Shown here: piece by piece, positions 9,417-27,083 of the stretch
Layout: each line of letters begins with the position of its first letter
How positions within the stretch are numbered: the first letter of the stretch is position 1
From: Candidatus Parcubacteria bacterium
GTDB lineage: Bacteria; Patescibacteriota; Saccharimonadia; UBA4664; JBIOIQ01
NCBI GenBank assembly: GCA_963718875.1
Contig: OY970378.1
Coordinates: 477,373 to 541,372 of the forward strand
Direction: 5' to 3'
Length of the DNA: 64,000 nt
Notes under the pieces: model-generated
Database searches by the model: none
What the model was told of the DNA's origin: nothing
Seen by the model: the letters and a program-made list of their open reading frames with translations, nothing else
Translations under genes and position numbers: made by a program

Positions 9417-9423
9417 TAGACGC

Positions 9424-9582: not shown

Positions 9583-9854
9583 CCAATGTCGTCCCGACAC
9601 CTTGCCTTGATTAAGATAGGTACCACCAAACTGTCAGTACTTTTTATTTTTAGCTCTTTAGTCCAGCCTAAGACCGTTTGAGATGATTTATGTCTTTTTT
9701 GGTGTTATCTCAAGTTTATGGCATTCAAAGTCTAAGTTCTGTAGCGAGGGTAACTTATAATCCTTTTGGCTGCCTAAGGTAGTACTTTGACTACTGACAG
9801 TTTGGTGGTGCCTAGTTAAAACACCACCAGTGGATGTGTCTGGTTGATACTTTT
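9583..9854 (+). mobile_element. MITE-like ~270-bp element, copy 1
   Basis: Terminal inverted repeats GGTACCACCAAACTGTCAGTAC (9619-9640) and CTACTGACAGTTTGGTGGTGCC (9791-9812); whole segment recurs reverse-complemented at 26812-27083 with only about ten differences in the core, by hand alignment. Confidence 0.75.
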
Positions 9855-10002
9855 ATAAATGGTATTCGTGATGAATCCCGGCGTTAATTTAAAGAGAGCT
9901 CAAGGCCATTAAAAAGCCACCGTGAGCTCTTTGAAGATCCATTTCGCTACTTAAAAGTATGGCCGTTTTTCGTTTAAGTGGACAGAACCGAAGCCTTTGT
10001 GC

Positions 10003-10031
10003 TTGACAGGCTTAATGGGTTTCGCTAATAT
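10003..10031 (+). promoter_or_regulatory. Strong sigma70-type promoter
   Basis: TTGACA 10003-10008, 17-nt spacer, TAATAT 10026-10031. Confidence 0.6.
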
Positions 10032-10038
10032 AGCATTC

Positions 10039-10140
10039 ATGAAGTCTCAAAAAATGTGTGTACAACTAACCACGACTCGCCGACAAGCTTTGGCTCTTGG
10101 CGTTTTAATTGTGGCCGCACGCAGTGAGAGGCTTTTGTAA
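10039..10140 (+). CDS. Candidate leaderless 33-codon small hydrophobic peptide (or sRNA)
   Basis: ATG lies 7 nt after the -10; translation MKSQKMCVQLTTTRRQALALGVLIVAARSERLL; unit ends at the terminator 10167-10193. Confidence 0.3.
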   Translation: MKSQKMCVQLTTTRRQALALGVLIVAARSERLL

Positions 10141-10166
10141 CTTTTCCTAAAGAGTAGAATTTTTGC

Positions 10167-10193
10167 AAGAGCCTCCAACCGGAGGCTCTTTTT
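10167..10193 (+). terminator. Intrinsic terminator
   Basis: AAGAGCCTCC-AACC-GGAGGCTCTT followed by TTT. Confidence 0.8.
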
Positions 10194-10200
10194 AGTTTTA

Positions 10201-10320
10201 CAACTTACGTACTTGGCACATTTCTGCGGCAGCACTTGTGTTTCTCGCTCAACGTACTTTCGTGTACGTCTCGTTGCGATACTCGGTGCTTTCTTGAACT
10301 GTACTCAAGTGCATAAGTTG
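10201..10320. repeat. Imperfect palindromic intergenic repeat, family copy R2
   Basis: Arms CAACTTACGTACTTGG / CTCAAGTGCATAAGTTG; 5' arm nearly identical to R5 (AACTTACGYACKTGGCACATTTC). Confidence 0.7.
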
Positions 10321-10335
10321 TAAGAATAGCGTTAT

Positions 10336-10412
10336 GGGGACTAGGTGTCTGGGCTATGACACGTCTTGCATTATCGGTGCAAGGAAGGAGGTTCAAATCC
10401 TCAAGTCTCCAC
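10336..10412 (+). tRNA. tRNA-like gene: Ala-type acceptor stem, canonical D and T loops, aberrant anticodon arm
   Basis: Acceptor GGGGACT/AGTCTCC with G3:U70 and discriminator A; D stem GTGT/ACAC with a GG-containing loop; T loop GGTTCAAATCC; anticodon arm is a 7-bp helix with loop TTATCGG (central triplet ATC) and only a 2-nt variable region; CCA not encoded. Confidence 0.5.
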
Positions 10413-10890
10413 TGCAGTACCTACCAAAACCAAAAAAGGGGAAAGTAGTGAGAAATTCTGTTCGAAGCCTCCCTGGATGGACCACCTGTTCTCTTCACTT
10501 TGGGGCGAGTTCTATCGCAGAAGCTCGGGTGAAAGCTCTAGGGTTGGTGGGCATGGCCGATGACGCCTCAGTTAAGGCGGCATTAAGGGGCTGGACCATC
10601 AGGCAGGTGATAGTTCGGGATGAGCGTTTCATCGCTTTGGTCGCAGAGCTAGAAGTTCTTGGAGTACATCTCAAAGAAAAGGGCGTTCCGCGCTCGTGGA
10701 GGGTCTCGAAAGAAGAAGCTTCAACTCTCGCTGCTCAGTAGTACAGGGAGTCGTCCATCTGATGGGAGGAAGCCCAAACAGGGTGGACAAGGGTGCTGCA
10801 AAAAGTTTTAAAGTTGGCGATCCTAACTTTGAGACTTGGCCTCCGAAAGACGTGATAACAGCGTGTCTTTTGGGGGCCTTACCCATGTTA
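10413..10890 (+). other. G+C-enriched segment of uncertain coding status, downstream of the tRNA-like gene
   Basis: ORF 10334..10741 begins inside the tRNA-like element; only its C-terminal ~60 codons (MADDASVKAALRGW..EEASTLAAQ) look protein-like. Confidence 0.25.
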
Positions 10891-10901
10891 TAATTTACGT
10901 C

Positions 10902-11162
10902 ATGATAGCCTACATTTTGTACAATAAAGATACCCCAATGGAGCGCGATGTACGGTATTTTGCCAAGCGTCTCGAATCGTTACAGGTGCAAAGCAAACTA
11001 GTTGAAGCCGATTCAGTTGAAGGAATTAGTTTTACGGAAAATTATGACTTACTTGCTCGACCGTCGCTTGTTTTAGCTACAGACAATGGCGTACTTATTG
11101 AGCGTTGGCAGGGTGAGCTACCTTTGGTGGAAAATGTAAGTTATTTGGCTCACCAATCGTGA
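10902..11162 (+). CDS. Hypothetical 86-aa protein (leaderless start)
   Basis: Extended -10 TGTTATAAT at 10886-10894, ATG 7 nt downstream; lies between ftsZ and yggT, where sepF/ylm genes sit in Firmicutes, but no SepF motif was recognised. Confidence 0.55.
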   Translation: MIAYILYNKDTPMERDVRYFAKRLESLQVQSKLVEADSVEGISFTENYDLLARPSLVLATDNGVLIERWQGELPLVENVSYLAHQS

Positions 11163-11227
11163 CGCAAAAATGCTCTTGTCGCTCAATGGGCTGTCCCGGC
11201 AAGTACTTTCAAGAAAGTTGGTCGTAG

Positions 11228-11500
11228 GTGAGCCAGTTTGTAAGCATTCTGTTAGTGTTTTTTAACTTATTTGTTATTGCCTTTAATGCTATTTTGATTA
11301 TACGGATTGTTGTAAGCTGGATTATGCCCGACATGCAGGCAAATTGGTTTGGTCGCTTATTGATTGATACAACTGAACCAATATTGGCACCGGTGAGGAA
11401 AATTTTACCGGGGGGTGGAATGATTGATTTGGCGCCGATGGTGACAATAATTGGTCTTTACGCCTTGCGAACATTGATATTTAGTTTGCTATTTCGCTAG
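11228..11500 (+). CDS. yggT: YggT/YlmG family membrane protein
   Basis: 90 aa, two TM helices, typical YggT layout; conserved position between ftsZ and ileS. Confidence 0.75.
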   Translation: MSQFVSILLVFFNLFVIAFNAILIIRIVVSWIMPDMQANWFGRLLIDTTEPILAPVRKILPGGGMIDLAPMVTIIGLYALRTLIFSLLFR

Positions 11501-11559
11501 CAATGCGTCATTATGTGGGTACAAAGTAAAAGCGTGTCGACTAAATGACAAGTGGTTAT

Positions 11560-11711
11560 CAGCCACTAGCTAGCGAGAAGAACAGCAAGCTAATTGCCTA
11601 CTAGACCTTGCCGGTGTGCCCCGTAAGAGCACAAATGAAGTGTCCATCTGGATAAGCAGGGTGGTACCTCCCGTTAGAAGTAATGGGACCCTGCAAACGG
11701 ATGGTTTTTTT
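11560..11711 (+). promoter_or_regulatory. T-box leader upstream of ileS
   Basis: T-box sequence AGGGTGGTACC at 11658-11668, then a hairpin ending in T7 (11704-11710); RBS AGGAG at 11717-11721; 5' boundary approximate. Confidence 0.7.
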
Positions 11712-11728
11712 ATTGTAGGAGATGAAGA

Positions 11729-14700
11729 ATGAAAAAAGTCGAACAAGCTAACTTTCCCGAATTTGAGCAAGAGATGCTTAAAATATGGGATAAGGAAAAG
11801 ACTTTTGAACAAAGCCTAGAGCTACGAAAAGGATCCAAGCGGTTTAGTTTTTACGATGGGCCTCCTTTTGCTAATGGCCTGCCACATTATGGACACGTTG
11901 TAGCAATCACCGAAAAGGATTCGATGACACGTTACAAAACTATGCGTGGGTATTTTGTGCCTCGCCGGAATGGTTGGGACACTCATGGGCTACCGGTAGA
12001 GTATGAAGTCGAAAAACAGTTAGGTATTTCAGGGAAAAAACAGATACAGGAAATGGGAGTAGATAAGTTTAATGAAGCCGCCAGGGCCAGTGTCTTTAAA
12101 TACAAAGAGCATTGGGAAGATTTTATGACTCGTATTGGCCGATGGGCCGATAAAAACTCGTATGCTACTTTGGACGATAGCTATATTGAAAGTGTTTGGT
12201 GGGTTTTAGGTCAGCTTCATGAAAAGGGTTTGATATATCGAGGATTCCGCTCTAACCCGTATTGCCCACGATGCGCCACTCCTCTTTCTAATTTTGAGGT
12301 GAACCAGAATTATAAGGACAATGTGTTGGACCCAAGCGTTTTTGTGAAGTTCGCTTTGGTTGAAGATCCGAACACAAGCCTGCTGGCTTGGACGACGACT
12401 CCATGGACGCTTCCGGCCAATGCGGCTTTGGCTGTTGATTCGGCGGCTGAATACGTGACGGTAGAATTGTTGGCGGATGGTGATGGTTGGGAAAAGGGGG
12501 AGAAGCTGATACTCGCGAAGAAGCGGATTGGTGAACTGGATCTGAGGAAGGCTGAGTATAAGGTAGTTAAAACACAGCAGGGCAAAGAGTTAGTCAATAA
12601 AATGTACTCTTCATTGTATGACTTGGCGATGAAAAGGCCTCCCGTTGAGTGGTCAGGTGCATCCGAAGGTCAACCTGGCCGCCCCAGAGCCAACCAAGTT
12701 TATGAGGATGACTCGGTTAGTCTTGAGGATGGGACCGGTATTTTACATATTGCTCCAAGATATGGAGAAGCCGATCTAGATTTGGGCATTAGGGAAGACT
12801 TGCCACTAATAGAAAGCGTTGATGGTAATGGACTTATGGCGGAGTCTTTTAAAGAAATTTCCGGGCTTGAAGACATTGTCGGGATGTTTTTTAAGAAGGC
12901 TGACCCGTTAATTATCGAGGATCTAGCTAAAAAAGGTCGCATCTTTGCCGCCGAATCTTTTGAGCATACTTACCCGTTTTGTTGGCGCTGCGAAACGCCG
13001 TTGATGTATTTTGCTATGCCGAGCTGGTTTGTAAAGGTAACAGAATTAAGAGACAAGCTGGTGGCTAACAACGAAAAAATCAATTGGGTGCCTAAGCATA
13101 TTAAGACTGGTCGTTTTGGTAATTGGCTGGCCGAGGCGCGCGACTGGAATTTTAGCCGCAATCGGTTTTGGGGTGCGCCTATCCCAATTTGGGTTAATGT
13201 GGACGACGAAACTGACTTGATCATAATCAAGTCAGTCCAAGAGCTGGAAGAGCTTTCTGGAGTTAAAGGAATTGATTTGCATCGTCCGAGTATAGATGTG
13301 GTTATACTCGAGCGCGACGGCAAAACATATAAACGAGTGGAAGAGGTGTTTGACTGCTGGTTTGAAAGCGGGTCAATGCCTTATGCCCAAGATCATTATC
13401 CGTTTGATGATAAAGAGAATTTTGATGATAAATTTCCGGCGGAGTTTATAGCCGAAGGCTTGGATCAGACGCGGGGCTGGTTTTACACCCTCCATGTTCT
13501 TGGCACGGCTTTGTTTGACAAGCCGGCGTTTAAGAATGTTATTGTTCACGGAATGGTTCTGGCGGCAGACGGGAAAAAGCTTAGTAAAAGATTAAGAAAT
13601 TACCCTGAACCATCAGAAATTTTTAATGGGACTGGAGCTGATAGTCTAAGGTTTTTCCTTATGAGTAGCCCAGTTGAAAATGGCGAAGATGTTCGTTTTA
13701 GCTACGATGCAGTCAATGAAGTTAAGCGCAACGTCTTTATGACGCTATGGAACGTCTTATCCTTCTTTACGACCTATGCCGAAATTGATAAATGGAAACC
13801 GAATACAAAAATTGTACAGCCTAAATCAAATAATGTCTTAGACGAATGGATGCTTGTAAGGCTAAACCAAACAACAGCCATCATGACGAAAGCGGCGGAT
13901 AGCTACCAGATTTCAAAAGCCGTAGAACCTTTAAAGGACTTGATTGACGATTTATCCAATTGGTACGTAAGACGTAGTAGGCGAAGGTTTGCCAAGAACG
14001 AAAGTAAGGCTGATAAGCTTCAAGCATTTGAAACGTTGCACTACGTATTGTTGCGAACTTCACAACTACTTGCACCTTGGTCGCCGTTTGTAAGCGATAA
14101 GGTGTGGCGAATTATTACCGAGGGAATGGATATTCCCCGCTCTGTGCATTTGAGTGACTGGCCGGAAGTTGGAGAAATTAGTAATGGAATATTACTCAAT
14201 GACATGAAAGAAATGCGTGATTTAGTTACCGAAGGTTTGGCTCAGAGGGCGGCAGCAGGAATTAAGGTGCGCCAGCCTTTAGCAGATGCACGATACGCAG
14301 GCAAAAAGCTGGATGATAGGTTAGTTGAAATTGCGGCCGAAGAGCTCAACGTCAAGCGACTTATAAATGACCCCACAGAAGAGGAAATTTCAAGTCGATT
14401 TGAAAAGATTGTTCCCGGTTCGACTGGTTTCAAACATGAGCCAGGGTTGCCGTCCAAACTGGTTTCCGTAAGTCGATTGGATAATCTTGTTGATCAAGAT
14501 TCTGGTGTCGAACAACTTGAAGAAAGTTTGAGTATAAAAAAAATAATATTGAATACTGAAATGACTCAAGAGTTAAAGCTGGAAGGCTTGGCGCGGGATC
14601 TTATACGCCAAGTGCAAGTTGCGCGCAAAGAGGCCGATCTTCAAGCCAATGACGTCATAAATCTGCTACTTGGAGTTGAAGGCGAGGCTGCAGAGGCGGC

Positions 14701-14830
14701 AAAGGCTTATGCTGAGATGATAGGCCGCGAGACTCTTGCCCAAGACTTTAAGGTCAGTAACATTGATCCGAGTGTTGTTCCGATACGGTTGGCGGGACAC
14801 GATATTACAATTGATTTAAGTAAGGCCTGA
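11729..14830 (+). CDS. ileS: Isoleucyl-tRNA synthetase
   Basis: HIGH-type motif PHYGHV, KMSKS-type KLSKRL, CP1 editing region; 1033 aa. Confidence 0.95.
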   Translation: MKKVEQANFPEFEQEMLKIWDKEKTFEQSLELRKGSKRFSFYDGPPFANGLPHYGHVVAITEKDSMTRYKTMRGYFVPRRNGWDTHGLPVEYEVEKQLGISGKKQIQEMGVDKFNEAARASVFKYKEHWEDFMTRIGRWADKNSYATLDDSYIESVWWVLGQLHEKGLIYRGFRSNPYCPRCATPLSNFEVNQNYKDNVLDPSVFVKFALVEDPNTSLLAWTTTPWTLPANAALAVDSAAEYVTVELLADGDGWEKGEKLILAKKRIGELDLRKAEYKVVKTQQGKELVNKMYSSLYDLAMKRPPVEWSGASEGQPGRPRANQVYEDDSVSLEDGTGILHIAPRYGEADLDLGIREDLPLIESVDGNGLMAESFKEISGLEDIVGMFFKKADPLIIEDLAKKGRIFAAESFEHTYPFCWRCETPLMYFAMPSWFVKVTELRDKLVANNEKINWVPKHIKTGRFGNWLAEARDWNFSRNRFWGAPIPIWVNVDDETDLIIIKSVQELEELSGVKGIDLHRPSIDVVILERDGKTYKRVEEVFDCWFESGSMPYAQDHYPFDDKENFDDKFPAEFIAEGLDQTRGWFYTLHVLGTALFDKPAFKNVIVHGMVLAADGKKLSKRLRNYPEPSEIFNGTGADSLRFFLMSSPVENGEDVRFSYDAVNEVKRNVFMTLWNVLSFFTTYAEIDKWKPNTKIVQPKSNNVLDEWMLVRLNQTTAIMTKAADSYQISKAVEPLKDLIDDLSNWYVRRSRRRFAKNESKADKLQAFETLHYVLLRTSQLLAPWSPFVSDKVWRIITEGMDIPRSVHLSDWPEVGEISNGILLNDMKEMRDLVTEGLAQRAAAGIKVRQPLADARYAGKKLDDRLVEIAAEELNVKRLINDPTEEEISSRFEKIVPGSTGFKHEPGLPSKLVSVSRLDNLVDQDSGVEQLEESLSIKKIILNTEMTQELKLEGLARDLIRQVQVARKEADLQANDVINLLLGVEGEAAEAAKAYAEMIGRETLAQDFKVSNIDPSVVPIRLAGHDITIDLSKA

Positions 14831-14873
14831 TTCGGGTCGGCTTGATGCATAAAAAGCTGTACAATATACGGTA

Positions 14874-15983
14874 ATGCTTCGTAAACGGTTTTGGAAAAAC
14901 TTTGATTTTATTTTGCTAGTAGTAGCTTTGTTGCTGGCGCTTGTAGGCATATTGGTTTTGTACTCTATTGGTTTTAAGGTAGCGAACTTGGCTTCTCCTG
15001 TGGCTGTGCGTAACCAGATAGTTTTTGCCGTGATTGGTGTTGTGGGGCTGCTTGTTTTCGCGGTGGTTGATTATAGAAGTTGGACTAAGTTCACACCGTT
15101 CCTTTACGTTGCAATGGTAGTACTCCTAGGAGTTGTACTTATAGCAGGAAAGTCTGCACTGGGAGCAACCAGGTGGATCAACTTAGGGTTTTTCCAGTTT
15201 CAGCCTTCAGAATTAGCAAAATTGGTGTTGATTGTGATATTAGCGCGCTTTTTTGCAACACACTATGATCAAATGGACAAGCCTCGCTATATTATCCAAT
15301 CGGCTATTTATATGCTTATTCCAGCAGTCCTAGTTCTTACGCAACCCGATCTTGGTACAGCCATGGTTTTGGGCGTTATTTGGCTGGTAATGATTCTAAC
15401 CACAAAAGCGCCAAAAATGTTGTTTGTGGTGTTAGGAGTTGTGGGCTCAATGTTACTACCTACTGCATATCATTTTTTAGGCGACTATCAAAAAGCCCGC
15501 ATCGCGGTGTTTCTAAATCCTTCGGTTGATCCTCAAGGGCGTGGGTTCAATGTTATCCAATCGACTATTGCAGTAGGGAGTGGGCAGCTTTTTGGCCGGG
15601 GTCTAGCTGCTGGTAGCCAGAGCCAACTCAACTTTTTGCCCAGCCAGCATACTGACTTTATATTTGCGGTCTTGACCGAGAAGATGGGGTTTATCGGTGG
15701 TTCCTTGTTGCTGTTAATGTTTGGCTTGTTACTCGCCAGAGGACTATTAATAGCTTATCGTGCCCAAGATCGTTTTGGGCTATTTCTAGCGGTTGGTATA
15801 GTAACGATGTTTGCGTTTCATGTTTTTATTAATGTAGGGATGAACATGGGGATTATGCCGGTTACAGGGATACCATTGCCGTTTGTCAGCTACGGTGGCA
15901 CCAGCTTACTGATAGGAATGATTGGAGTGGGACTATTGGAGTCTGTTAATGTTCGGCGCAAAAAACTGGAGTTTGGAAACTAA
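14874..15983 (+). CDS. SEDS-family peptidoglycan polymerase (FtsW/RodA)
   Basis: About ten TM helices, FQPSELAK and DFIFAV motifs; cannot distinguish FtsW from RodA. Confidence 0.85.
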   Translation: MLRKRFWKNFDFILLVVALLLALVGILVLYSIGFKVANLASPVAVRNQIVFAVIGVVGLLVFAVVDYRSWTKFTPFLYVAMVVLLGVVLIAGKSALGATRWINLGFFQFQPSELAKLVLIVILARFFATHYDQMDKPRYIIQSAIYMLIPAVLVLTQPDLGTAMVLGVIWLVMILTTKAPKMLFVVLGVVGSMLLPTAYHFLGDYQKARIAVFLNPSVDPQGRGFNVIQSTIAVGSGQLFGRGLAAGSQSQLNFLPSQHTDFIFAVLTEKMGFIGGSLLLLMFGLLLARGLLIAYRAQDRFGLFLAVGIVTMFAFHVFINVGMNMGIMPVTGIPLPFVSYGGTSLLIGMIGVGLLESVNVRRKKLEFGN

Positions 15984-16052
15984 AAATTTATAAAACACTG
16001 GCTTTGTTTTTTTTGATATAATCGAGGTGGCGAAGAGGAGGAAGGTGGATCT

Positions 16053-16454
16053 ATGCAGACGAATGCTGTGCGTTTACGCCAGTTACGTCCGCGCAAGAAA
16101 GACTTGAATTTCTTCACGGTTGAGGACATGCAACGATGGGCTCGGAACCGCCGCAAACCTCCTTACATACCAGTGCAAACGGCAACAGCTGCTTTTGGCC
16201 TGATTTTGCAGCAGGCTAATATACTGGAAATTGAGGTGAGGTGTGCACTAGGCAGTAACTGTAGAATCAAGGTAGGGTGGACTCTAGGCAAGAAAAGATA
16301 TTGCACGGCGGTCCACTGGGTGAATCGTCGTGATTTTGTCCGCTGTCGGTTCGAAACGTTCCGCTCAGTTAAACGAGGTGGGCCTGTACTCGCCGGAACG
16401 CTTTGCCGCTACCAGGAGTACCTGAGGCATGGAGGGGGGAGGAAGGTCGCTTAA
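16053..16454 (+). CDS. Hypothetical basic Cys-containing 133-aa protein (alternatively a structured rplU leader)
   Basis: Extended -10 TGATATAAT at 16013-16021, purine-rich SD before the ATG; stop codon sits in the loop of hairpin GGAGGAAGGT..ACCTTCCTCC; the 5' GGAGGAAGGT at 16039-16048 could pair alternatively with the same 3' arm. Confidence 0.35.
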   Translation: MQTNAVRLRQLRPRKKDLNFFTVEDMQRWARNRRKPPYIPVQTATAAFGLILQQANILEIEVRCALGSNCRIKVGWTLGKKRYCTAVHWVNRRDFVRCRFETFRSVKRGGPVLAGTLCRYQEYLRHGGGRKVA

Positions 16455-16534
16455 GGGCTACCTTCCTCCCATGGTCTTTACATACGAGGCCAAACCTGGT
16501 ATTATTCCAAGGTTATCAATTTAAGAAAAGTTAT

Positions 16535-16834
16535 ATGCAAGCAATTATCACCACTGGTGGCAAACAATACATCGTAGCCAAGGACCAAACTCTAGAGGTA
16601 GAGTTATTGGGCGAAGTCAAAAAACTTGAATTTGACGTACTTATGACTATGGATGGGGATAAATTTCAAGTTGGCGCACCTTTTGTGGCTGGTGTTAAAG
16701 TAAAGGCCGAAGTGTTAGAGGAAACAAAGGGTGAAAAAATTAAAGTTTTAAAGTTTAAGGCGAAAAAGCGCGTCAAAAAGCTTACTGGCCACCGTCAGCA
16801 CTATTCCAAGATTAAAATCGTCTCCATCGGTTAA
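16535..16834 (+). CDS. rplU: 50S ribosomal protein L21
   Basis: MQAIITTGGKQYIV.. start; ORF track start 16403 is an upstream extension. Confidence 0.9.
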   Translation: MQAIITTGGKQYIVAKDQTLEVELLGEVKKLEFDVLMTMDGDKFQVGAPFVAGVKVKAEVLEETKGEKIKVLKFKAKKRVKKLTGHRQHYSKIKIVSIG

Positions 16835-16835
16835 A

Positions 16836-16861
16836 AAGCCGCCCAACCGGGCGGTTTTTTA
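16836..16861 (+). terminator. Intrinsic terminator after rplU
   Basis: GCCGCCC-AACC-GGGCGG followed by T6. Confidence 0.85.
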
Positions 16862-16953
16862 GTTAAGGCTCAAATATTGGATTGCTACTTGAAATATTTA
16901 TAATCAACACATATAATGGTGGTACCGTCAATCAAGCCTTAGGAGGCCGACGA

Positions 16954-17499
16954 ATGCTCAAGAGACCCCTTATCACGCGTCCGATTGAGGATGTTGTCGC
17001 GGACATCCTCGATCTCGATCTCGGACCGATCAGGTTCACGCTCGTTCGTCGAGGCTGGACCGGAGGTCTGGCTGACCGCTTCATCACGGAGTACCGCCGC
17101 CTTCTTGAGCTGATGGTGCGGTTTCCAGATGATGTCATCGTCCCTTCGGAGGACGTGGATACCGTCTGGCACACCCACATCCTCGACACGGCCAGGTACC
17201 GCGATGACTGCATGCGGATCTTCGGCTTCTTCCTCGACCATTTCCCGTATTTGGGCACGCGTGGATCTGACGACGAGGATGAACTTCGTCGGCTGTACAC
17301 CCGATCGCGGGAGCTGTATGAGCAGACGTTCGGCCATCGGACGGTGTCTACGGCATCGGCCTGCTCCGCGTTCGGAGCTGGGAATGGAGATGTACCCGTT
17401 CCAGCTCTGGTTGGAGCAGCCACAGTGGCGTATTGTGGCGGGGGTGGCGGAAAGCCGTCGTCTGCTCCTAGCTACCACCAAGGTGGTAGCTGTGGCTGA
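16954..17499 (+). CDS. G+C-rich foreign-looking gene: glycine-rich-domain (GRDP/DUF1399-like) protein
   Basis: AGGAGG 7 nt before ATG 16954; DTVWHTHILDT motif and Gly-rich tail; G/C-biased third positions; strong hairpin GTTGATGGTGGCGG..CCGCCACCATCAAC downstream. Confidence 0.6.
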   Translation: MLKRPLITRPIEDVVADILDLDLGPIRFTLVRRGWTGGLADRFITEYRRLLELMVRFPDDVIVPSEDVDTVWHTHILDTARYRDDCMRIFGFFLDHFPYLGTRGSDDEDELRRLYTRSRELYEQTFGHRTVSTASACSAFGAGNGDVPVPALVGAATVAYCGGGGGKPSSAPSYHQGGSCG

Positions 17500-17628
17500 G
17501 GGTCTTGAAGTAAGGTTGATGGTGGCGGTTACGGCCGCCACCATCAACTTGATACAAATGTTTATGAAGTTAGCTCGTTCGCACCATAACCGGTAATCTG
17601 GTACAATCTACTCTAGAAACGAGGGATT

Positions 17629-18543: not shown

Positions 18544-19446
18544 ATGGGAGGTAATAAAGGTTTAGGACGAGGGTTTGATTCACTAATACCTACGCAGTTG
18601 GTGGAGGAAGAGTTTGACCCGACTGCTAGCACGAGTAATAGCGAAGGGTCTAGACCTTCGGCCGACTCTATTTATCAAATTGATTTAAAGTTGGTGGATC
18701 CAAACCCGCACCAGCCGCGGTTAGTGTTTGATGATGCGGCACTAGACGAACTTGCTGCATCGATAAGACAACACGGCATACTACAGCCAATTATTGTTAC
18801 CGAACAAGGCGAGGGACGTTATCAGTTGATTGCGGGCGAGCGGCGTCTGCGAGCAGCGAAATTAGCGAGCCTTAAAACAATCCCTGGCATAGTGCGTAGT
18901 TTTACCGATCAACAGAAGCTTGAGCTGGCTTTGATTGAAAATCTCCAACGCCAAGATCTTAACCCTATCGAAACAGCCACAGCTTACCGTAAACTGGTTG
19001 ATCAATTTAACCTTACGCTAGACACTATTGGAAAAAAAGTTGGGAAGGATACTTCAACTATCTCAAACAGTATGAGATTGCTTAATTTGCCGCTTGAAGC
19101 CAAGAGGGCGGTGGCTAGCGGCCAGATGACTGAGGGGCATGGGCGGACGATTCTAACAGTTCTTAATCCTGAAAAGCAGCTGGTGTTATGTAGGATGATT
19201 ATTGCTAATGATTGGTCTGTGCGTCAAGCTGAGGAGTTTGCTCGCGGATTTAAAGAGCCGAGTGCAACAAAAGACACGGCTTTGAAAAGGATTGCCGAGA
19301 CCAATGAAGTTACCCAGTCTCTGAGTAACTATTTGGGCGCAAAGGTAACCTTGCGTCATACTGCAAGAGGGGGGCGTTTAACAATTGAATACTACTCTGA
19401 AGAGGAATTAGATCGCATTTACCGGGCGATTAAATCGGATAGCTAA
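18544..19446 (+). CDS. parB: Chromosome partitioning protein ParB/Spo0J
   Basis: GERRLRAA and LIENLQRQDLNP motifs, HTH region. Confidence 0.9.
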   Translation: MGGNKGLGRGFDSLIPTQLVEEEFDPTASTSNSEGSRPSADSIYQIDLKLVDPNPHQPRLVFDDAALDELAASIRQHGILQPIIVTEQGEGRYQLIAGERRLRAAKLASLKTIPGIVRSFTDQQKLELALIENLQRQDLNPIETATAYRKLVDQFNLTLDTIGKKVGKDTSTISNSMRLLNLPLEAKRAVASGQMTEGHGRTILTVLNPEKQLVLCRMIIANDWSVRQAEEFARGFKEPSATKDTALKRIAETNEVTQSLSNYLGAKVTLRHTARGGRLTIEYYSEEELDRIYRAIKSDS

Positions 19447-19452
19447 GATTTG

Positions 19453-20298
19453 CTACAGCAGGGATTGAACTAGCTTTGGTAGGTCTTGAGATACTAGAGA
19501 AAAGAGGCGGAACTTGTCGAGTGGCAGCAACCGAACAGCAGCAGTGCCAACAATTTGTTTTGAGGGTAAAAATCCCCATTCTCGAGAGTCAAAAGATCCA
19601 TTTGGACTGCGGTTATCTCCGAGGACAAAAATACTTCCTTCGGGAACGATGTCGTCAAAAGTGCCTTGAGTGGTCTCGGTTGCGCGTTGGTAAGTTGTAA
19701 GGTCCGGGTCGATACCCTGTGGGTTGAGTTTATTAAAAACTCTGACACGGCCATCTTTTATAACTACATGCTCACCCGGCAGACCAATAACTCGTTTTAC
19801 AAAAATTAGGTTAGGATCTCTAGGGTAGTGGAACACAACGACGTCATAGCGATTAGGTATATAGGCGGAGTTCTTAAATCCGCTAATAGATTTTCCAATT
19901 TTTGACACTATGAGGTAATCAGTGTCATGGAGCGTTGGGTCCATGCTTTGGCCTACAACGTGAAAGGCTTGAAAGACAAAATTGTGCAGAATAAATACTA
20001 TGATAATCGGTATAATAACCCAGTTTAAGATACCAAAGAATATTGACGATATGGCCGAGAAGGCAGTTGATCCCATGTGATTTGACTTGGCCTCGGGTTC
20101 GCTCGAAACACTTTCTGCTGCACCTACTGGGTTTGCCGGGCTGTTACTTTGTTCGTTGTCTGGTGGACTGGGCGGATTGGTTATAGGCTGAGGTGTGGAG
20201 GGTAAAGGCTCCACTTGGCTCGCGAGAGAATTGGTATTCACCGGCTGAGTTGGCGGTACTTGGTTTGGGTTCGGGTTGGTGGGAGTATCGTCATTCAT
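19453..20298 (-). CDS. lepB: Signal peptidase I with Pro-rich N-terminal extension
   Basis: GQSMDPTL (Ser box), GDNRSPNGSFDSREWG; about 75-aa Pro/Asn/Ser-rich segment before the TM helix. Confidence 0.9.
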   Translation of the reverse strand: MNDDTPTNPNPNQVPPTQPVNTNSLASQVEPLPSTPQPITNPPSPPDNEQSNSPANPVGAAESVSSEPEAKSNHMGSTAFSAISSIFFGILNWVIIPIIIVFILHNFVFQAFHVVGQSMDPTLHDTDYLIVSKIGKSISGFKNSAYIPNRYDVVVFHYPRDPNLIFVKRVIGLPGEHVVIKDGRVRVFNKLNPQGIDPDLTTYQRATETTQGTFDDIVPEGSIFVLGDNRSPNGSFDSREWGFLPSKQIVGTAAVRLLPLDKFRLFSLVSQDLPKLVQSLL

Positions 20299-20425
20299 AC
20301 TTAAACTACTATACGCGTTGCATAGATTTGCAGCAAGCTACGAGCTAAGGCTAGTTGTGCTTTTTGGTAAATTATAGCTGTTAATGGTTTACTCTTAACG
20401 GTTATGTCGTTTATACTTAAGCGTA

Positions 20426-21862
20426 ATGGATGAACTCAGCCGACAAAAAATGCGTCGCGCCAACGGCTTCGCAAGGACTACTTTTGGTGGATTTGAACAT
20501 ACTAGAGCAGCAGAAAGGATTGCGCCTGCGGTAGTAGCCTCGCCAAAGGAAGTCTTTGATTATAAAAAAACCAAAATGCCTAAAGTGCATCGATATCGTT
20601 CGACAAAAACGATTGCAGTTATGTCCGCTGCCGTACTAGGCATAACAGTGGTATTTTTTGGGGTAAAAATTGTTTTAGCGACTAATAAGGTTATAACTCG
20701 GAATAATACTGGTGGAGCGCCGGCGCTTTCTAGTGGTACCGTGGTACCAAGTAAACTAAAAGGGGAAGGTGACGGTCGGGTAAACATTTTGCTTATGGGT
20801 ATTGGTGGTGCTGGACATCCCGGAGGATTGCTTAGTGACACCATGATGGTTGTAAGTATTGACCCAAATACCAAAGACACAGCAATGTTAAGCATCCCGA
20901 GAGACTTATGGGTGCAAATTCCCGGTAAGGGAATGAGTAAAATTAATGCCGCGAACGCTTATGGAGGGCCTGAGGTGGCCAAGACGGTGGTCGCTAAAAC
21001 ACTAGATATACCAATACATTACTACGTTCAGCTTGATTTCCAGGGTTTCAAACTGGCAGTTGATCAAGTGGGGGGGATAAACGTTGTGAATGCGACGGCA
21101 TTAAATGATTCTGGGTATCCATGTGATGATGGCGGCGCCTGTCCTTATTATTTGGCCGCTGGAGAGCATTTGCTCAATGGTGCGCAAGCACTTAAGTTTG
21201 CGCGTTGTCGCGAAGGTACATGTGGTAGTAACTATGGTCGGGAAGATCGGCAGCGTCAAAGTTTGCTGGCTTTACGCCAAAAAGCTATGGCTATTTCAAC
21301 TCTCACAAATCCGGTAAAAATTGCCAGCTTAATTGACATTGTTGGCGGGCATCTAAAAACTGATTTACAAATAGCTGATATGGCTAAATTGGCAACTATT
21401 GCAAAATTAGTGGATCCGGATTCTGTTGTGATGAAGGGTCTTGATGATTATACCCTTAGTGGTATGGTGGCTGGTCAAAGTGTAGTGTTGCCAAAGACTG
21501 GAAACTTTGGCGAGATTCGTAATTTTGCTCATTCGATCTTTATCGACACTTATATAAAGCAAGAAAACGCTAGTATAGCGGTGCAAAACGGTACTTCAAG
21601 ATCAGGGTTAGCGGCTACGGTAGGGGCGTTATTAGAAGATACGTACAAATATAACGTAGTTTCAACTACGACTGCTGACAACCAAAACTACCCCACGACT
21701 ATAATTTTTGATTACAGTAATGGTAAAAAGCCCTACACGGTCAATTATTTGGCAACAAGGTTTGGTGTCAAGGTTCAGCGTGCTACGGCTCCGGCTGGAA
21801 ATGTTGCTGACATAAAAATTATTCTTGGAGCCGATTATCATCCTACCGTCATTTCTCGTTAA
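20426..21862 (+). CDS. LytR-CpsA-Psr (LCP) family cell-wall polymer transferase
   Basis: TM anchor, RVNILLMGIGG..SDTMMVVSIDP..LSIPRDL core, LytR_C-like tail. Confidence 0.85.
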   Translation: MDELSRQKMRRANGFARTTFGGFEHTRAAERIAPAVVASPKEVFDYKKTKMPKVHRYRSTKTIAVMSAAVLGITVVFFGVKIVLATNKVITRNNTGGAPALSSGTVVPSKLKGEGDGRVNILLMGIGGAGHPGGLLSDTMMVVSIDPNTKDTAMLSIPRDLWVQIPGKGMSKINAANAYGGPEVAKTVVAKTLDIPIHYYVQLDFQGFKLAVDQVGGINVVNATALNDSGYPCDDGGACPYYLAAGEHLLNGAQALKFARCREGTCGSNYGREDRQRQSLLALRQKAMAISTLTNPVKIASLIDIVGGHLKTDLQIADMAKLATIAKLVDPDSVVMKGLDDYTLSGMVAGQSVVLPKTGNFGEIRNFAHSIFIDTYIKQENASIAVQNGTSRSGLAATVGALLEDTYKYNVVSTTTADNQNYPTTIIFDYSNGKKPYTVNYLATRFGVKVQRATAPAGNVADIKIILGADYHPTVISR

Positions 21863-21909
21863 CGACTATAAAGCTACGGTAGGTAAATGTAGTATAATCG
21901 TAAAAACAG

Positions 21910-22662
21910 ATGAAATCGTGGAAGTTAAATTTCTCTTCGGCAACTATTTATAACAGCCTACTTACTTTTATAATAGTGCTACTAGCTATCGCCCATCAAC
22001 CGGCTTTAGCAGTCGGTGTGTTGCTTGCAGATGAGGCGTGGCGCTGGTGGCGACATGATGAGCGGAGCTTGGAATTTATACAAGCTGATAGCTGGTTATG
22101 GCTTAGCGGCATCGCTAGTATAATAATTATTAGCCTTAGCCCAAATTTTGCGATGCAGTTAATATTGTCTATTCTGTTTAGTACCTGGCGCTGGTGGCTC
22201 TTGGCTCGTTTTGAGGTTTCGGAAAATCCCCCTATGATCGTAGCCGCTATTACTCAATCACTAGTGTTGTGGGCGGTGTTTCTAGCTACCGCGGTTTGGC
22301 ATTGGCCAACTATTTTAGTATTAGTCATCATATGGGGGTGCAGCTGGACTATAGCTTGGCAGGTGTTTGCATCCGTAAAGGACAGGGCGGCTGGAGCCTT
22401 AGCTTTGACTTGGGCTTTGATTGTGGCAGAGAGCTCTTGGGTGTTCTCGCTTTGGCTGGTTAATTACGTGGTCTTTAATGGACTACTTATAATTCCTCAG
22501 CCGGCGCTTGTAATAAGTGCCTTGGGTTATTGCTTGGCGGGTATTTATACCTCGCATCGCCGAAGCCAGTTGACTCGCAAACGTTTAGTTGAGTATCTGA
22601 CCATCGGTTTGGTGATCTTGGTTATTGTCATAGCTGGGACTAAATGGAATGGGGTTATTTAG
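21910..22662 (+). CDS. Trp-rich polytopic membrane protein, unknown function
   Basis: 250-aa ORF with six to seven hydrophobic helices; no motif recognised. Confidence 0.55.
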   Translation: MKSWKLNFSSATIYNSLLTFIIVLLAIAHQPALAVGVLLADEAWRWWRHDERSLEFIQADSWLWLSGIASIIIISLSPNFAMQLILSILFSTWRWWLLARFEVSENPPMIVAAITQSLVLWAVFLATAVWHWPTILVLVIIWGCSWTIAWQVFASVKDRAAGALALTWALIVAESSWVFSLWLVNYVVFNGLLIIPQPALVISALGYCLAGIYTSHRRSQLTRKRLVEYLTIGLVILVIVIAGTKWNGVI

Positions 22663-22798
22663 AATTTTTAACTTAAATAGTTTTTATTTGTGAAAGCTTA
22701 AGTTCAAAAACTGGAATGTAGGTGGGTTAAAGTAAGGTCTTTCTCAGCTCATTGTTGGTATAATAAGTTTGTAATCATTTTGTAAACGAAGGACTCTC

Positions 22799-23998
22799 AT
22801 GGAAGTACATCAGGACGACGGATCCGAGCATAAATTAGATGAAAAACCAAGGTTATCTTCCAATGATAATGTTTTGCCTAGAAACGTTTCTAGCCCTGCC
22901 GGACAACTGGTCTTACTAAGCCTAATTTTTGGTCTTTTGGGTGGGCTTGGAGGAGGGTTTTTAATAGCAAAGTATGGCTCAAGCATCTCTAAGGCAGACC
23001 AAAAAAAGGTGGTCTTGCAAGATAGTTCCGCCATTATTGATGTAGTAAAATCGACTTCTCCAAGTGTCGTTAGTATAAGTTCGCAAACAACCGGGATAGG
23101 CTTATTTGGGCTGCAAACTAGTCAAACAGGGGCAGGAACGGGAATCATTGTCAGCTCGGATGGCTTAATATTAACCAACAATCATGTCGTGAGTGATCAG
23201 GGGGCTACTTTTAGTGTCTTTACGTCGAATGGCCAGGAATATAAGGATGCAACGGTTGTTGCGACTGACCCAACCAGAGATATAGCTTTCATCAGAATTA
23301 AAGCTAAAGGGCTAAAGGCTGCTACATTGGGAGACTCTAGTAATTTAGTAGTAGGGGCTAGGGTTATTGCTATTGGAAACGCCCTGGGCCAGTTTCAGAA
23401 TAGTGCTACTGAAGGGATTATTTCTGGCTTAGGCAGACCGATTGAAGCAGCGAGTGGCAGTAGTGACGGGAGCGGTGTAGAGTCTCTGGATAACCTTATC
23501 CAAACAGATGCTGCCATTAACCCTGGTAACTCTGGTGGTCCACTTGTAAATATTAGTGGGCAGGTGATTGGCATGAATACAGCCATTGCCGGACAAGCTC
23601 AAAATATCGGTTTTGCTATACCAATTAATCTTGCTAAAACGGCCCTCGAAAGTGTCAAGAGTAAAGGCAGGATCACGCGACCTTACTTAGGGGTGCGATA
23701 TCTCGATATTACACCAAGCTTTGCTGCCAGGAATAATATTAAGCAGACTGCTGGTGCTTATGTTTCAGGAGACCGAAACAACTTGGCGGTTTTGCCGGAT
23801 AGTCCTGCTGCTAAAGCTGGCCTCAGAGAAGGAGATATTATTATCAAAATCAATAAGGATACTATTGATGCCAATCACCCCTTGTCTGGCCTGGTGTCGA
23901 AATATGGTATCGGCGACAAGCTAACTATTACCTATATCAGGGACGGTAAGACTCAAACTGTCACCGCCACTCTTGCTGAAGCACCAAGTAATGGCTAA
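22799..23998 (+). CDS. HtrA/DegP-like serine protease with PDZ domain
   Basis: LTNNHV (His), GNSGGPL (Ser), C-terminal PDZ (GLREGDIIIKIN). Confidence 0.9.
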   Translation: MEVHQDDGSEHKLDEKPRLSSNDNVLPRNVSSPAGQLVLLSLIFGLLGGLGGGFLIAKYGSSISKADQKKVVLQDSSAIIDVVKSTSPSVVSISSQTTGIGLFGLQTSQTGAGTGIIVSSDGLILTNNHVVSDQGATFSVFTSNGQEYKDATVVATDPTRDIAFIRIKAKGLKAATLGDSSNLVVGARVIAIGNALGQFQNSATEGIISGLGRPIEAASGSSDGSGVESLDNLIQTDAAINPGNSGGPLVNISGQVIGMNTAIAGQAQNIGFAIPINLAKTALESVKSKGRITRPYLGVRYLDITPSFAARNNIKQTAGAYVSGDRNNLAVLPDSPAAKAGLREGDIIIKINKDTIDANHPLSGLVSKYGIGDKLTITYIRDGKTQTVTATLAEAPSNG

Positions 23999-24360
23999 AC
24001 TTGTTTAAGTTGAGCAATTTCCGCTTGAAGTTTAGTGGCTTTTTCTAAGCTAACATCGTAAATGTTCTTGCCATAGGCCTCGACAATGACATGGTCATGT
24101 CTGAGTAAGTAGTGCTCCACCTTTGAACTTACCTTGATGGTTATTTCGGCTTTCCATTCAAATCTAGGATTTGCATAAGGGGTAGTCAGGGTTAATTCAA
24201 TGGTGCCGTCAAGGTAGTCGAGCTTAGTCCCATATAAAATAAGCTTGTCATCTGGCAAGTCAATTAAGTCCCGTCCATAAACCTTGTTTGCTTTACCACT
24301 ATTGGGACTTTTTAAAATCTCAACAATATCGGCATAAATAATGTTCCAAATCTGCTCCAT
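23995..24360 (-). CDS. Hypothetical 121-aa protein
   Basis: Last gene of the minus-strand rpmE-prfA-prmC operon; no motif recognised. Confidence 0.5.
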   Translation of the reverse strand: MEQIWNIIYADIVEILKSPNSGKANKVYGRDLIDLPDDKLILYGTKLDYLDGTIELTLTTPYANPRFEWKAEITIKVSSKVEHYLLRHDHVIVEAYGKNIYDVSLEKATKLQAEIAQLKQV

Positions 24361-24364
24361 TAGG

Positions 24365-25168
24365 TTATTTTAGTTGGAATCCCAAAATAAAGTAACCTTG
24401 TTCTGTTAAGGCTAGGCCTGCCTGTGCGGCTTCGTGTATAAGTTCTGGCTGTTGCCAAGGGTCGGATTCGATAAAAACGTATCCGTTGGGGGCTAAGTGG
24501 TTGCCAAGTTGATGAAAAAAACGGCGGTATAGTTCCAAGCCATCGTTTCCGCCAAATAAAGCTACGGCAGGCTCACGCCGTACTTCTGGCATAAGTTCGG
24601 CATCGTTTTTAAGGTAGGGGAGGTTGGTTACGATGGTGGAGAACTTCCCTGAAATATCATCAAATAAGTCTGATTGAATAAACTTAGTATTCAATTTAAG
24701 CTGAGCTGCATTTTTCTTTGCAAGTGTCATTGCTGTGGGTGAAATTTCGGTGGCTGTAATACTTAGATCAGGACGGTGGTGGGCTATGCTCAAAGCTATG
24801 GCGCCTGATCCGGTTCCAATATCAATAAGATCTGAATTTTTAAATGCATATTGAATGGCCCATTCAACCATTTGTTCAGTTTCAACCCTGGGGGTTAAAA
24901 CATCGGGAGTAATCATAAACATTAAACCATAAAACTCTCGCTGATTTATAAGGTGGACGAGAGGGACGCGCTGCGCACGTTGGGCGATAAAAAAATTGAA
25001 CTCTGTTACGATCTTTTTGTCTAAATCGCTATTTGGGTTGGCTAGCAGATGCTCTCTAGACCGGTTGGAAGCATATTCTAATAATACGAGCGTATCAAGG
25101 CGGTGACTAGATATCCCGGCTTTTTCAAGAGTCTGTGATGAATTTTTTAATACATGTCCAATTGTCAT
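24365..25168 (-). CDS. prmC: Release-factor glutamine N5-methyltransferase
   Basis: SAM motif [10 protein letters not shown], catalytic NLPY (variant of NPPY); overlaps the prfA stop. Confidence 0.85.
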
Positions 25169-26223
25169 AGAGCGGCTGCGTTTAAAGCTGATTCAAGTTC
25201 GGTTTTTCGCAAAGCTTCAATCATTTCGCCAATGTTGCCATCCATATAGCCGGGTAAATTGTGTCGGCTTATACCAATGCGATGGTCCGTTACTCTATCC
25301 TGAGGAAAATTGTAAGTCCGAATTTTTTCGCTGCGATCGCCTGAGCCAATTTGGCTACGACGTGCTGAATCAGTTTCGCTACGTTCTTGTTCAAGTTTCA
25401 TTGCTAGCAGACGCGAGCGTAGTACCCCCATGGCCTTGGTCTTGTTTTTTAGTTGGCTTTTTTCGTCTTGGCAGGTAACTACTAGTCCTGTGGGAAGATG
25501 GGTTATTCGAACTGCAGAATCGGTGGTATTTACAGATTGTCCTCCGTTGCCGCCTGATCGATATACATCAATTCGCAAGTCATTAGGATTTATTTCAAGC
25601 TCAGTTTCTTCGGCTTCGGGAAGAACTGCTACTGTAACGGTAGATGTGTGTATTCGGCCTCCAGATTCTGTGACGGGTATACGCTGAACCCTATGAACTC
25701 CTGATTCAAATTTAAGCTCTCCATAGGCGTTTGAGCCGTGGATACCAAAGATTATTTCTTTAAAACCACCGACATCACTAGGGCTTTCTGAGATAAGCTC
25801 TAAGCGCCAGCCTTTGCTTTCCGAATAGTGGCTATACATGCGAAAAAGTTCTCCAGAAAATAATGATGCCTCGTCTCCACCAGCGCCTGCGCGAATTTCG
25901 ACAATGGCATTCTTGGCATCATGAGGGTCAGTCGGTACTAGAGCAAGCTTAAGCGCCTCTTGAGTTTGATTAAGCTGATGCTCAAGCTCGGGGATTTCTG
26001 CTTCGGCTAGATCGTGCAATTCTGGATCGGATAGTGCTTGCCGGTTTTCTTCTAGGTCTGAGCTTAACTTAGCCCTTCGGTCGTACAGCTCAATCGTAGA
26101 GGCTAGTTCAACCTGCCTCTTGCCGAGGTTGGCCGCTTCAGGTGTACCATAAACTGTGGGATCTTGCATCCGCTCGTTTAACTGGGTGTATTCGTCTCGT
26201 AGTTTACGTTCTGTTTCGTCCAT
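25165..26223 (-). CDS. prfA: Peptide chain release factor 1
   Basis: PVT tripeptide, GGQ ([12 protein letters not shown]); start at MDETERK.. preferred over ORF start 26241. Confidence 0.9.
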
Positions 26224-26289
26224 GGTTTTTACTCTAATCAAAATGCGCTGCTTCTATTGTAGCAGCGCATTTTGATTAATTTCTGTTAA

Positions 26290-26631
26290 TTACTTATTGT
26301 TTTCGAGCTGCTTTATATCCACAGTTTCTGTGGCCAGCTCCGCTTCTATTTTTTCAATTGAATCTTCGACTAAAGCCTCGGAATTGCCCTTTCTTGGAGC
26401 TTTTGGCTTTGACTTAGATTTTAACTTTTCAGCTTGACTGCGGCGGGCGTTAAATTTATCGACTCGGCCAGCAGTGTCGATTAGTTTTTGCTTACCGGTA
26501 TAGAAAGGATGACAATTTGAGCAAATTTCAACAGTAATTTCTGGAACCGTTGAATGGGTTTGGAATGTCGTGTTACAGCCGTTGCAATGTACCTTGGTGT
26601 CGATGTAATTTGGATGGATTCCGGTTTTCAT
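26290..26631 (-). CDS. rpmE: 50S ribosomal protein L31 with Lys-rich C-terminal extension
   Basis: MKTGIHPNY.., CxxC...CxxC zinc motif; ORF track start 26739 is a spurious extension. Confidence 0.85.
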
Positions 26632-26811
26632 GGATAGGAGTATATCAGGAAATCGCTCGGCAGGCAACATTAGTGGGTCTGGGTGCTGTCCACTTAAATG
26701 GAACGACCAAGCTTTTAAGTGGCGTAAATGGATCTTCAAAGCGCTCTCGGCGGCTTCTTCTTGGCCCTAAGCTCTCTTATAATTCCGGGAATCATCACTA
26801 ATGTCATCTCT

Positions 26812-27083
26812 AAAAGTATCAACCAGACACATCCACTGGTGGTGTTTTAACTAGGTACCACCAAACTGTCAGTAGTCAAAGTACTGCCTTAGGCAGCCAA
26901 AAGGATTATAAGTTACTCTCGCTTTAAAGCTTAGACTTTAAATGCCATAAACTTGAGATAACACCAAAAAAGACATAAATCATCTCAAGCGGTCTTAGGC
27001 TGGCCTAAAGAGCTAAAAATAAAAAGTACTGACAGTTTGGTGGTACCTGCCTTAATCAAGGTAAGATGGCAGGGCGACATAGG
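26812..27083 (-). mobile_element. MITE-like ~270-bp element, copy 2 (inverted relative to copy 1)
   Basis: TIRs GGTACCACCAAACTGTCAGTAG (26854-26875) and GTACTGACAGTTTGGTGGTACC (27026-27047); reverse complement aligns with 9583-9854. Confidence 0.75.

Follow-up and report, generated by a model that had tools for sequence, protein, structure and literature searches.

The Correia elements of Neisseria (CREE/NEMIS) are small non-coding intergenic repeats in which inverted repeats of ~22-26 bp surround ~100-150 nt; they often lie near promoters, and they form a long duplex when they are transcribed. Here we describe a pair of repeats that resembles them in part, namely an AT-rich unit of ~410 bp that is present in two inverted copies (copy A and copy B) within 64,000 nucleotides of a genome deposited as Candidatus Parcubacteria bacterium (contig OY970378.1, positions 477,373 to 541,372 of the forward strand; this whole stretch is termed the window, and all positions are counted from its first letter). 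Searches with RpsB and FtsZ place the host in the Saccharimonadia (Saccharibacteria/TM7), within the candidate phyla radiation (CPR), and the genomes of this group are small and as a rule are said to contain few repeats and little mobile DNA. Like a Correia element, the unit is non-coding and intergenic, carries 22-bp inverted repeats and lies near promoters. However, in Correia elements the inverted repeats form the boundaries, a TA duplication is present and the copies number in the hundreds, whereas here the inverted repeats are internal and two copies were seen. The ERIC (or IRU) elements are also non-coding and hairpin-forming, are found in intergenic or intercistronic spacers, and vary in presence or absence at a given site between relatives, as does our unit, but an ERIC element measures ~127 bp, is palindromic over its full length and is multi-copy, whereas in our case only the central 195 nt are closed by a stem and the 3′ 177 nt lie outside the palindrome. 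The ERIC type is in fact closer to a second hairpin family of the window (family 2, see below) than to the two-copy element. Finally, the miniature inverted-repeat transposable elements (MITEs) related to insertion sequences (ISs) of the IS630/Tc1-mariner or IS5 type (RUP, bcr1, Nezha) share with the unit the size class, the AT-richness, the presence of inverted repeats and the lack of a transposase, but differ in having terminal repeats and a target-site duplication, neither of which was found here; a cognate IS and many copies also define MITEs. We tentatively favor the view that the pair represents a new family of small palindromic dispersed repeats, akin to MITE, ERIC and Correia elements in a broad sense only, whose center has been homogenized by gene conversion, and which is not a canonical MITE.

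The repeat search of the window detected inverted repeat arms of 306 nt with 92% identity (9581-9886 and 26780-27085) together with an adjoining arm of 59 nt, and blastn joined them into a single alignment of 410 bp (9581-9989 versus 27085-26682; 88.3% identity, E = 8e-149). Both searches confirmed the original prediction, made from the letters of the sequence, that two inverted copies of a non-coding element are present here, but the copy length of ~270 bp that it gave falls short of the real unit, which measures ~410 bp and has edges that are ~77% identical. The identity between the copies forms a mosaic: it is 77.1% in alignment columns 1-35, 95.8% in columns 36-273 and 76.6% in columns 274-414 (center versus edges, Fisher p = 4e-8). 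With 10 differences in its 238 columns, the center agrees well with the roughly ten substitutions that had been counted by hand in a core of ~235 bp. The 5′ edge spans 35 bp, with homology extending perhaps to ~50, and the 3′ edge covers 141 alignment columns, i.e., ~135 bp beyond the center. Two small hairpins are predicted in this diverged 3′ tail, but its fold is not significant (sense-strand z of -1.2 and -0.8 in the two copies).

The center is composed of a 195-nt hairpin, which is closed by a 22-bp stem, followed by 42 nt that are invariant between the copies (42/42; 9814-9855 = 26852-26811), so that the observation of 42 identical bp beyond one of the arms was correct. The 22-nt arm, (A)GGTACCACCAAACTGTCAGTA, occurs four times in the window (9618-9639, 9792-9813, 26853-26874 and 27027-27048), and the 18-mer ACCACCAAACTGTCAGTA gave 4 matches against 0.06 expected from shuffled sequences. 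The stem is perfect in copy B and contains one G.T pair in copy A. Within the 152-nt core that the arms enclose, 9 changes were found between the copies, and 6 of them are clustered in one 24-nt patch. The sequence CACCACCA in the 42-nt block could pair with the right arm, which would constitute an alternative to the long stem. The arms sit inside the unit, at a distance of 35-50 bp from one of its ends and of ~177 bp from the opposite end; hence, the terminal inverted repeats of 21-22 bp proposed earlier do exist as 22-bp repeats, but they are internal to the inserted unit rather than terminal. The coordinates of all these features are collected in Table 1.

The two sites were compared with loci of related genomes (numbered L001, L014, etc.). 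The nearest relatives share an amino-acid identity of only 78% (RpsB) and 88% (FtsZ) with the host. Copy A follows ftsZ, within a stretch that is poor in genes and ahead of a small conserved gene, yggT and ileS. In the three related lineages L014, L015/L016 and L018 the ftsZ stop codon is separated from a TTGACA promoter by 13-55 nt and the element is absent. The gap between the ftsZ stop codon and this promoter module in the window is 586 nt, and the 410-bp unit and a hairpin of 123 nt (9416-9538) account for the extra DNA. Copy B lies in the spacer from which rpmE and rpsB diverge, which measures 615 bp in the window versus 172-239 bp in L002, L013, L008 and L006. When 26682-27085 is subtracted, the spacer of the window becomes 211 bp long and aligns with those of the relatives, including both promoters. 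Since the relatives keep the gene order and orientation at both sites and yet lack the element, each copy is, on this comparison of sequences, a lineage-specific insertion, the spacers concerned being short and free of the element in related Saccharimonadia. By the same comparison, the whole ~410 bp was inserted, with the 22-bp arms internal to it, and the earlier suggestion that the duplicated unit is larger than the part bounded by the inverted repeats is borne out by a homology that runs past the arm. Copy A ends 7 nt before the -35 box of the small open reading frame (ORF) downstream, and copy B ends 8 nt before that of rpmE. No target-site duplication, a feature for which the original prediction had proposed a search, was found at the ends of the 410-bp unit, and these ends have no recognizable features. 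Next to the arms, copy A has TA on both sides and copy B has CA/TA, and the flanks of the arms are homologous between the copies.

The spacer between rpmE and rpsB is also long in some other relatives (570-1060 bp; L001 9121-10000, L007 9023-10085, L009 10444-11017 and L012 748-1512), where it carries insertions unrelated to our unit, with small ORFs such as those of 127 and 140 aa that lie on the strand of rpmE and the GC-rich ones of L001. Because of these unrelated insertions, this spacer can be considered a tolerated insertion spot, or hot spot, across the Saccharimonadia. In addition, the second-closest relative by FtsZ identity (87%) has a gap of 1.1 kb after ftsZ.

We then searched for further copies and for a partner enzyme. 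Neither nhmmer nor a covariance model built from the pair found a third copy of the unit, or of any part of it, in the window or in 18 related loci, the orthologous spacers included. Pfam scans were performed on window ORFs of at least 100 aa, and ~15 ORFs, mostly located at 28-38 kb, were identified instead by synteny with annotated relatives. Among the Pfam-scanned ORFs there were only housekeeping genes, and no transposase or recombinase domain (including Phage_integrase and Resolvase) was detected, in agreement with the claim that no transposase lies nearby. Furthermore, no reverse transcriptase, IS110 recombinase or TnpB/IscB gene is found beside the element, the neighbors being ftsZ, the small ORF, rpmE and rpsB. 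The exact 20-mer of the arm had no match in 596 Gb of species-representative genomes, a set that appears not to include this genome, and the 18-mer had none in viral contigs; these arm searches were exact or near-exact, so that diverged IS ends would escape them. The unit had no blastn match among plasmids and phages, and a six-frame pseudo-protein of the open stretches of copy A matched none of 5.8 billion protein clusters. A degenerate 22-mer searched in Joint Genome Institute (JGI) metagenomes gave one match, in L005, a 1.5-kb, ORF-poor, eukaryote-like contig that carries a single arm without a partner. The 26 consecutive bases at L005 279-304 (GGCAGGTACCACCAAACTGTCAGTAC) are common with the left arm of copy B, and no further similarity exists. 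This match is probably due to chance, although it is longer than the 22-mer query and somewhat longer than expected by chance. Finally, no Rfam family reached its gathering score anywhere in the window (at E ≤ 10 scattered, chance-level matches appear over both copies), and the unmatched classes include 6S, L31 leaders, raiA, ROOL, GOLLD and HEARO.

The MITE-like nature that had been proposed for the element is upheld only in part by these data, as the unit is the whole 410 bp, has no target-site duplication and has no third copy among the sequences searched. The model that we prefer, a hairpin repeat homogenized at its center, proposes that the pair stems from an old duplication, and that the edges have since drifted to 23% divergence while gene conversion between the copies, the most likely cause of the contrast, would keep the center almost identical (4% diverged). 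The long hairpin may itself provoke the breakage and repair that drive gene conversion. The element would probably have no dedicated function; ftsZ and copy A share a strand, with copy A on the downstream side, and if copy A were co-transcribed, the 22-bp duplex would be a possible target for an RNase III-type enzyme, as it is in Correia and ERIC elements. The presence of a second hairpin family in the spacers of the same genome supports the reading of the element as another hairpin repeat.

Several observations weigh against this model. Only two copies were seen, both within 64 kb of a contig of 1.19 Mb, so that "dispersed" and "mobile" are not demonstrated properties, and no mechanism of movement was identified. 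What fits least well is the left edge of the high-identity tract, which falls, to the base, where the left arm has its outer end: gene conversion over a random tract could begin there only by luck, whereas a mobile or functional unit that started at this point would have to show such an edge, and this coincidence keeps alive both the idea of a functional RNA or DNA unit and that of a nested element. In addition, both copies share their orientation and their position 7-8 nt upstream of a -35 box, which might reflect a function or a target preference, but this placement is weakly informative, because there is little room between the ftsZ stop codon and the promoter, or between the divergent promoters. 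Finally, the RNA corresponding to the rpmE-sense strand is predicted to fold with -122 and -125 kcal/mol in the two copies (z of -4.0 and -4.4), compared with -104 kcal/mol (z of -2.7) for the opposite strand of copy A. The 150-nt interior without the closing stem shows the same tendency, with z of -1.8 and -3.1 on the sense strand versus -0.4 and -1.8 on the antisense strand. This better folding of the sense strand hints at a constraint at the RNA level.

The folding data bear on the alternative that the copies are paralogous genes of a structured non-coding RNA, in which the ~240-nt center would represent a multi-branched domain, closed by the stem, to which a tail of 42 nt is attached. In one variant, the center would be the precursor of a small RNA (sRNA) freed by an RNase III cut of the 22-bp stem, so that both sequence and fold would matter in the two copies. 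This alternative is unlikely, but several findings speak for it. The sense strand is more stable than shuffled sequences and than the antisense strand, and the sole change in the 44 stem positions gives a U.G pair on the sense strand, whereas on the antisense strand it would produce a mismatch, A.C. The high-identity tract begins exactly at the stem, the copies are oriented alike relative to the downstream promoter, and another hairpin family with clear covariation is maintained in the genome. On the other hand, no homologue was found at either site in the relatives or elsewhere among the sequences searched, unlike family 2, which crosses genera; there is no Rfam match, and the center lacks a conserved upstream promoter as well as an intrinsic terminator at its end. 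The RNAalifold consensus has 1 double change in 108 pairs and all the substitutions in pairs are compatible with it, but this table is circular, since the opposite strand gives the same compatibility. When the fold was predicted from one copy and the changes of the other copy were compared with shuffles among positions with the same base, no excess of pair-preserving substitutions was observed on either strand, a test that has no power with two copies and 10 differences in the center. Furthermore, selection on structure alone does not explain the invariant loops: the ~60 unpaired positions of the core would carry ~14 changes at the rate of the edges (23% diverged), and the whole core has 9. 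Since the loops are about as invariant as the stems, selection on the fold alone is less likely than homogenization or a recent common origin of the center. A more specific version, in which the 238-nt center is a lineage-specific RNA, e.g., a precursor from which a stem cut releases a ~150-nt product, appears more doubtful still; such an RNA would stay identical in the two copies because it pairs with targets, and its transcription or structure would modulate rpmE and the conserved ftsZ-linked small ORF, whose leaderless promoters lie just downstream.

The mosaic could also result from nesting, i.e., two old copies of a ~176-bp repeat, now represented by the 5′ edge (35 bp) and the 3′ tail (141 bp), might each have received a young mobile hairpin element of 238 bp (9618-9855) by site-specific insertion. 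This would explain the sharp 77/96/77% mosaic and the coincidence of the left boundary with the end of the arm, and the reverse complement of the right end (AAGTATCAACCAGAC) is weakly like the left end (AGGTACCACCAAAC), with 11 of 15 positions matching by eye. However, nesting needs two independent insertions at an identical position, and neither an empty 176-bp unit nor a further 238-bp unit was found in the window or in the related loci. As no transposase was found either and the terminal similarity is weak, we consider nesting improbable.

The chances of a canonical MITE, in which ~195 bp bounded by 22-bp terminal inverted repeats and flanked by a TA target duplication would be mobilized in trans by an IS located elsewhere, are slight. 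The perfect or near-perfect 22-bp inverted repeats, the TA on both sides of the arms of copy A, and the small (below ~600 bp), AT-rich and non-coding character of the element would fit such a MITE. However, both flanks of the arms are homologous between the copies, with 42 of 42 positions identical on one side, and because of this homology the arm-bounded part cannot have inserted independently. Copy B has CA/TA and not TA/TA, and neither a third copy nor an IS with these ends was found in the collections searched. An arm-bounded canonical MITE is contradicted at these two copies.

Known invertons (fimS, Bacteroides promoter switches) have ~20-bp inverted repeats around a segment of ~150 bp upstream of genes, and are thus of comparable size and repeat length. 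That the 22-bp repeats here are recombinase sites around a 152-bp promoter segment, with two switches sharing an invertase encoded elsewhere, is very unlikely, for although the dimensions, the position just upstream of genes, and a perfect TATAAT in the core that is kept in both copies and points at the downstream gene would fit, this TATAAT has no -35 box and was not called by the promoter scan, both downstream genes retain their ancestral promoters, no recombinase gene is present among the scanned ORFs of the 64 kb, and the two assembled copies show the same internal orientation.

Several other candidates were rejected. The LDR and QUAD/SIB repeats of Escherichia coli, which encode type I toxin-antitoxin systems and were noticed at first as intergenic repeats, are likewise few-copy repeats of a few hundred bp with a short ORF that has a hydrophobic stretch and lies in a strong fold. 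The only frame of our element that is open in both copies, with the same start and stop, is a 31-codon ORF, the other frames being interrupted in one copy. Unlike the LDR and QUAD ORFs, however, it lacks a Shine-Dalgarno sequence and a promoter, its hydrophobic run covers ~11 residues, and 8 of its 9 differences change the amino acid (8 non-synonymous versus 1 synonymous), a pattern of substitution that is non-coding, so that a small toxin was discarded. A 6S RNA, a retron, an inverton, a parS site or DnaA box, and an L31 leader each lack the defining partner or position. A pseudogene of rpmE downstream of copy A was also discarded, as tblastn gave no match and the homology stops at 9989.

As anticipated by the original prediction, recombination between the inverted copies would in principle invert the segment between them (9990-26681). 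The copies share identical runs of 44, 48, 30, 29 and 45 bp, which, judging from their lengths, would suffice for a RecA-dependent inversion. Pfam agrees with the gene content that had been listed for this segment (ileS, the SEDS gene, rplU, parAB, lepB, prfA and rpmE), the assignments being IleS, FtsW/SEDS, L21, ParA/ParB, signal peptidase, PrmC, RF-1 and L31. Each unit sits on the upstream side of the neighboring promoter, so that no gene would be parted from its promoter by an exchange within the unit. In L001, L002/L015, L006 and a JGI contig, the genes between and including ftsZ and rpsB have the order and orientation seen in the window, and the GC skew is positive throughout the 17-kb segment. 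These two observations indicate that the assembly shows the ancestral orientation, and neither the gene order nor the GC skew gives any sign of flipping.

Table 1. Positions of the repeat copies, their parts, the neighboring genes and promoters, and other features of the window.
Feature	Position	Strand	Remarks
ftsZ	8100..9416	+	upstream of copy A
Copy A, ~410-bp unit (family 1)	9581..9989	+	between ftsZ stop (9416) and small-ORF promoter
Copy A, high-identity center (columns 36-273)	9618..9855	+	stem-closed hairpin domain + 42-nt block
Copy A, left arm	9618..9639	+	AGGTACCACCAAACTGTCAGTA
Copy A, right arm	9792..9813	+	TACTGACAGTTTGGTGGTGCCT; one G.T opposite left arm; 152 nt separate the arms
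42-nt block	9814..9855 (copy B 26811-26852)	+	0/42 differences; nhmmer matches these two places only
Diverged 3′ tail	9856..9989 (copy B 26682-26810)	+	76.6% identical, three indels
Ancestral promoter, TTGACA-17-TAATAT	10003..10041	+	ATG 7 nt on; leaderless small ORF 10039-10140
rpmE	26290..26631	-	diverges from rpsB around copy B
rpmE promoter, TTGCCT-17-TATACT	26629..26667	-	ATG (26631) 7 nt on; kept in spacers of element-free relatives
Copy B, repeat unit	26682..27085	-	divergent rpmE(-)/rpsB(+) spacer; oriented like rpmE
Copy B, high-identity center	26811..27048	-	from alignment of the copies
Copy B, right arm in the element's own orientation	26853..26874	.	22/22 complementary to 27027-27048
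Copy B, left arm in the element's own orientation	27027..27048	.	
rpsB	from 27247	+	
Family 2, strong members	10186-10335, 55477-55638, 51150-51299	+	
Family 2, weak members	9404-9550, 38657-38811	+	
Family 2, member in relative L003	7233-7378		between mreB and mreC
tRNA-like gene	10336-10412	+	
GC-rich island	51399-53826		

The second hairpin family of the window (family 2) is unrelated to the two-copy repeat and has no Rfam match. Its members are rod-like hairpins of ~135-150 nt, all of them on the gene (+) strand just downstream of genes, and they are conserved across genera (Table 1). When four members are compared, both partners differ in 22 of the 42 pairs and pairing is kept. Of all cells, 89.8% are paired, versus 72.5% after shuffling (none of 500 shuffled sets attains the observed value), while partners slid out of register give 27-41%. 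Two of the members flank copy A, and one of these (10193-10328) is itself an insertion with respect to L014, L015 and L018. Family 2 may represent a new structured RNA or an ERIC/REP-like element, and hairpin repeats appear, from the sequences compared, to be general in the spacers of this lineage.

The promoter downstream of copy A belongs to a module that follows ftsZ in the window (10003-10190) and in L014 (~3993-4190), L015 (11390-11565) and L018 (~1700-1860). It comprises a TTGACA-17-TAnnnT promoter and a leaderless ORF, whose start codon comes 7 nt downstream of the -10 box, followed by the box GAGGCTTT and a strong terminator. Its ORF has 22-33 codons, begins with MKSQ (VKSQ in L015, with a GTG start) and has a hydrophobic C-terminal half; in the window it reads MKSQKMCVQLTTTRRQALALGVLIVAARSERLL. 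The product of this module could be a small membrane protein with a link to cell division; alternatively, it could be an sRNA. A leaderless arrangement, in which the ATG comes 7 nt past the -10 box, seems to apply to several genes, including rpmE and the small ORF.

A tRNA-like gene follows the family 2 member at 10186-10335. ARAGORN calls it a tRNA-Asp with the unusual anticodon ATC, and its score with the Rfam tRNA model is 22.9 against a cut-off of 29. Its acceptor stem, GGGGACU/AGUCUCC, contains G3.U70, an alanine identity mark, and it has the discriminator A and no encoded CCA. The 5′ end is kept in L014, and the counterpart in L015 has an insert of ~45 nt that forms a hairpin and is not called by ARAGORN. 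Farther downstream, a GC-rich island (64% versus a background of ~45%), at which the GC skew changes sign, has overlapping long ORFs without a Pfam match and 5-6 tandem 33-bp units (CTGCGGTCCGCCCCCGACGACGTGTCAGGTCAA), especially at 53352-53549. This island may encode a repetitive surface protein or may be foreign DNA. At the Rfam gathering score, no T-box or other leader was found before five aminoacyl-tRNA synthetase genes (e.g., 11501-11728, ileS), and no ribosomal-protein leader was found in the 64 kb.

A two-copy hairpin repeat of 410 bp is a mild curiosity, as is the multi-copy family beside it, because the genomes of this group are usually described as repeat-poor. As the evidence stands, with none for a function or for an inversion, the current understanding of these genomes is unchanged. 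The repeats mark spacers that tolerate insertions, they could confuse the assembly of related metagenome-assembled genomes, and they are a substrate for a promoter-neutral inversion of 17 kb that includes ileS, ftsW, parAB and prfA. To our knowledge, almost no regulatory RNAs have been described in this lineage. If the center of the element were a functional RNA, it would represent a new class of RNA in the lineage and, together with the covarying family 2, it would suggest that the CPR have a set of hairpin RNAs that is still unexplored.

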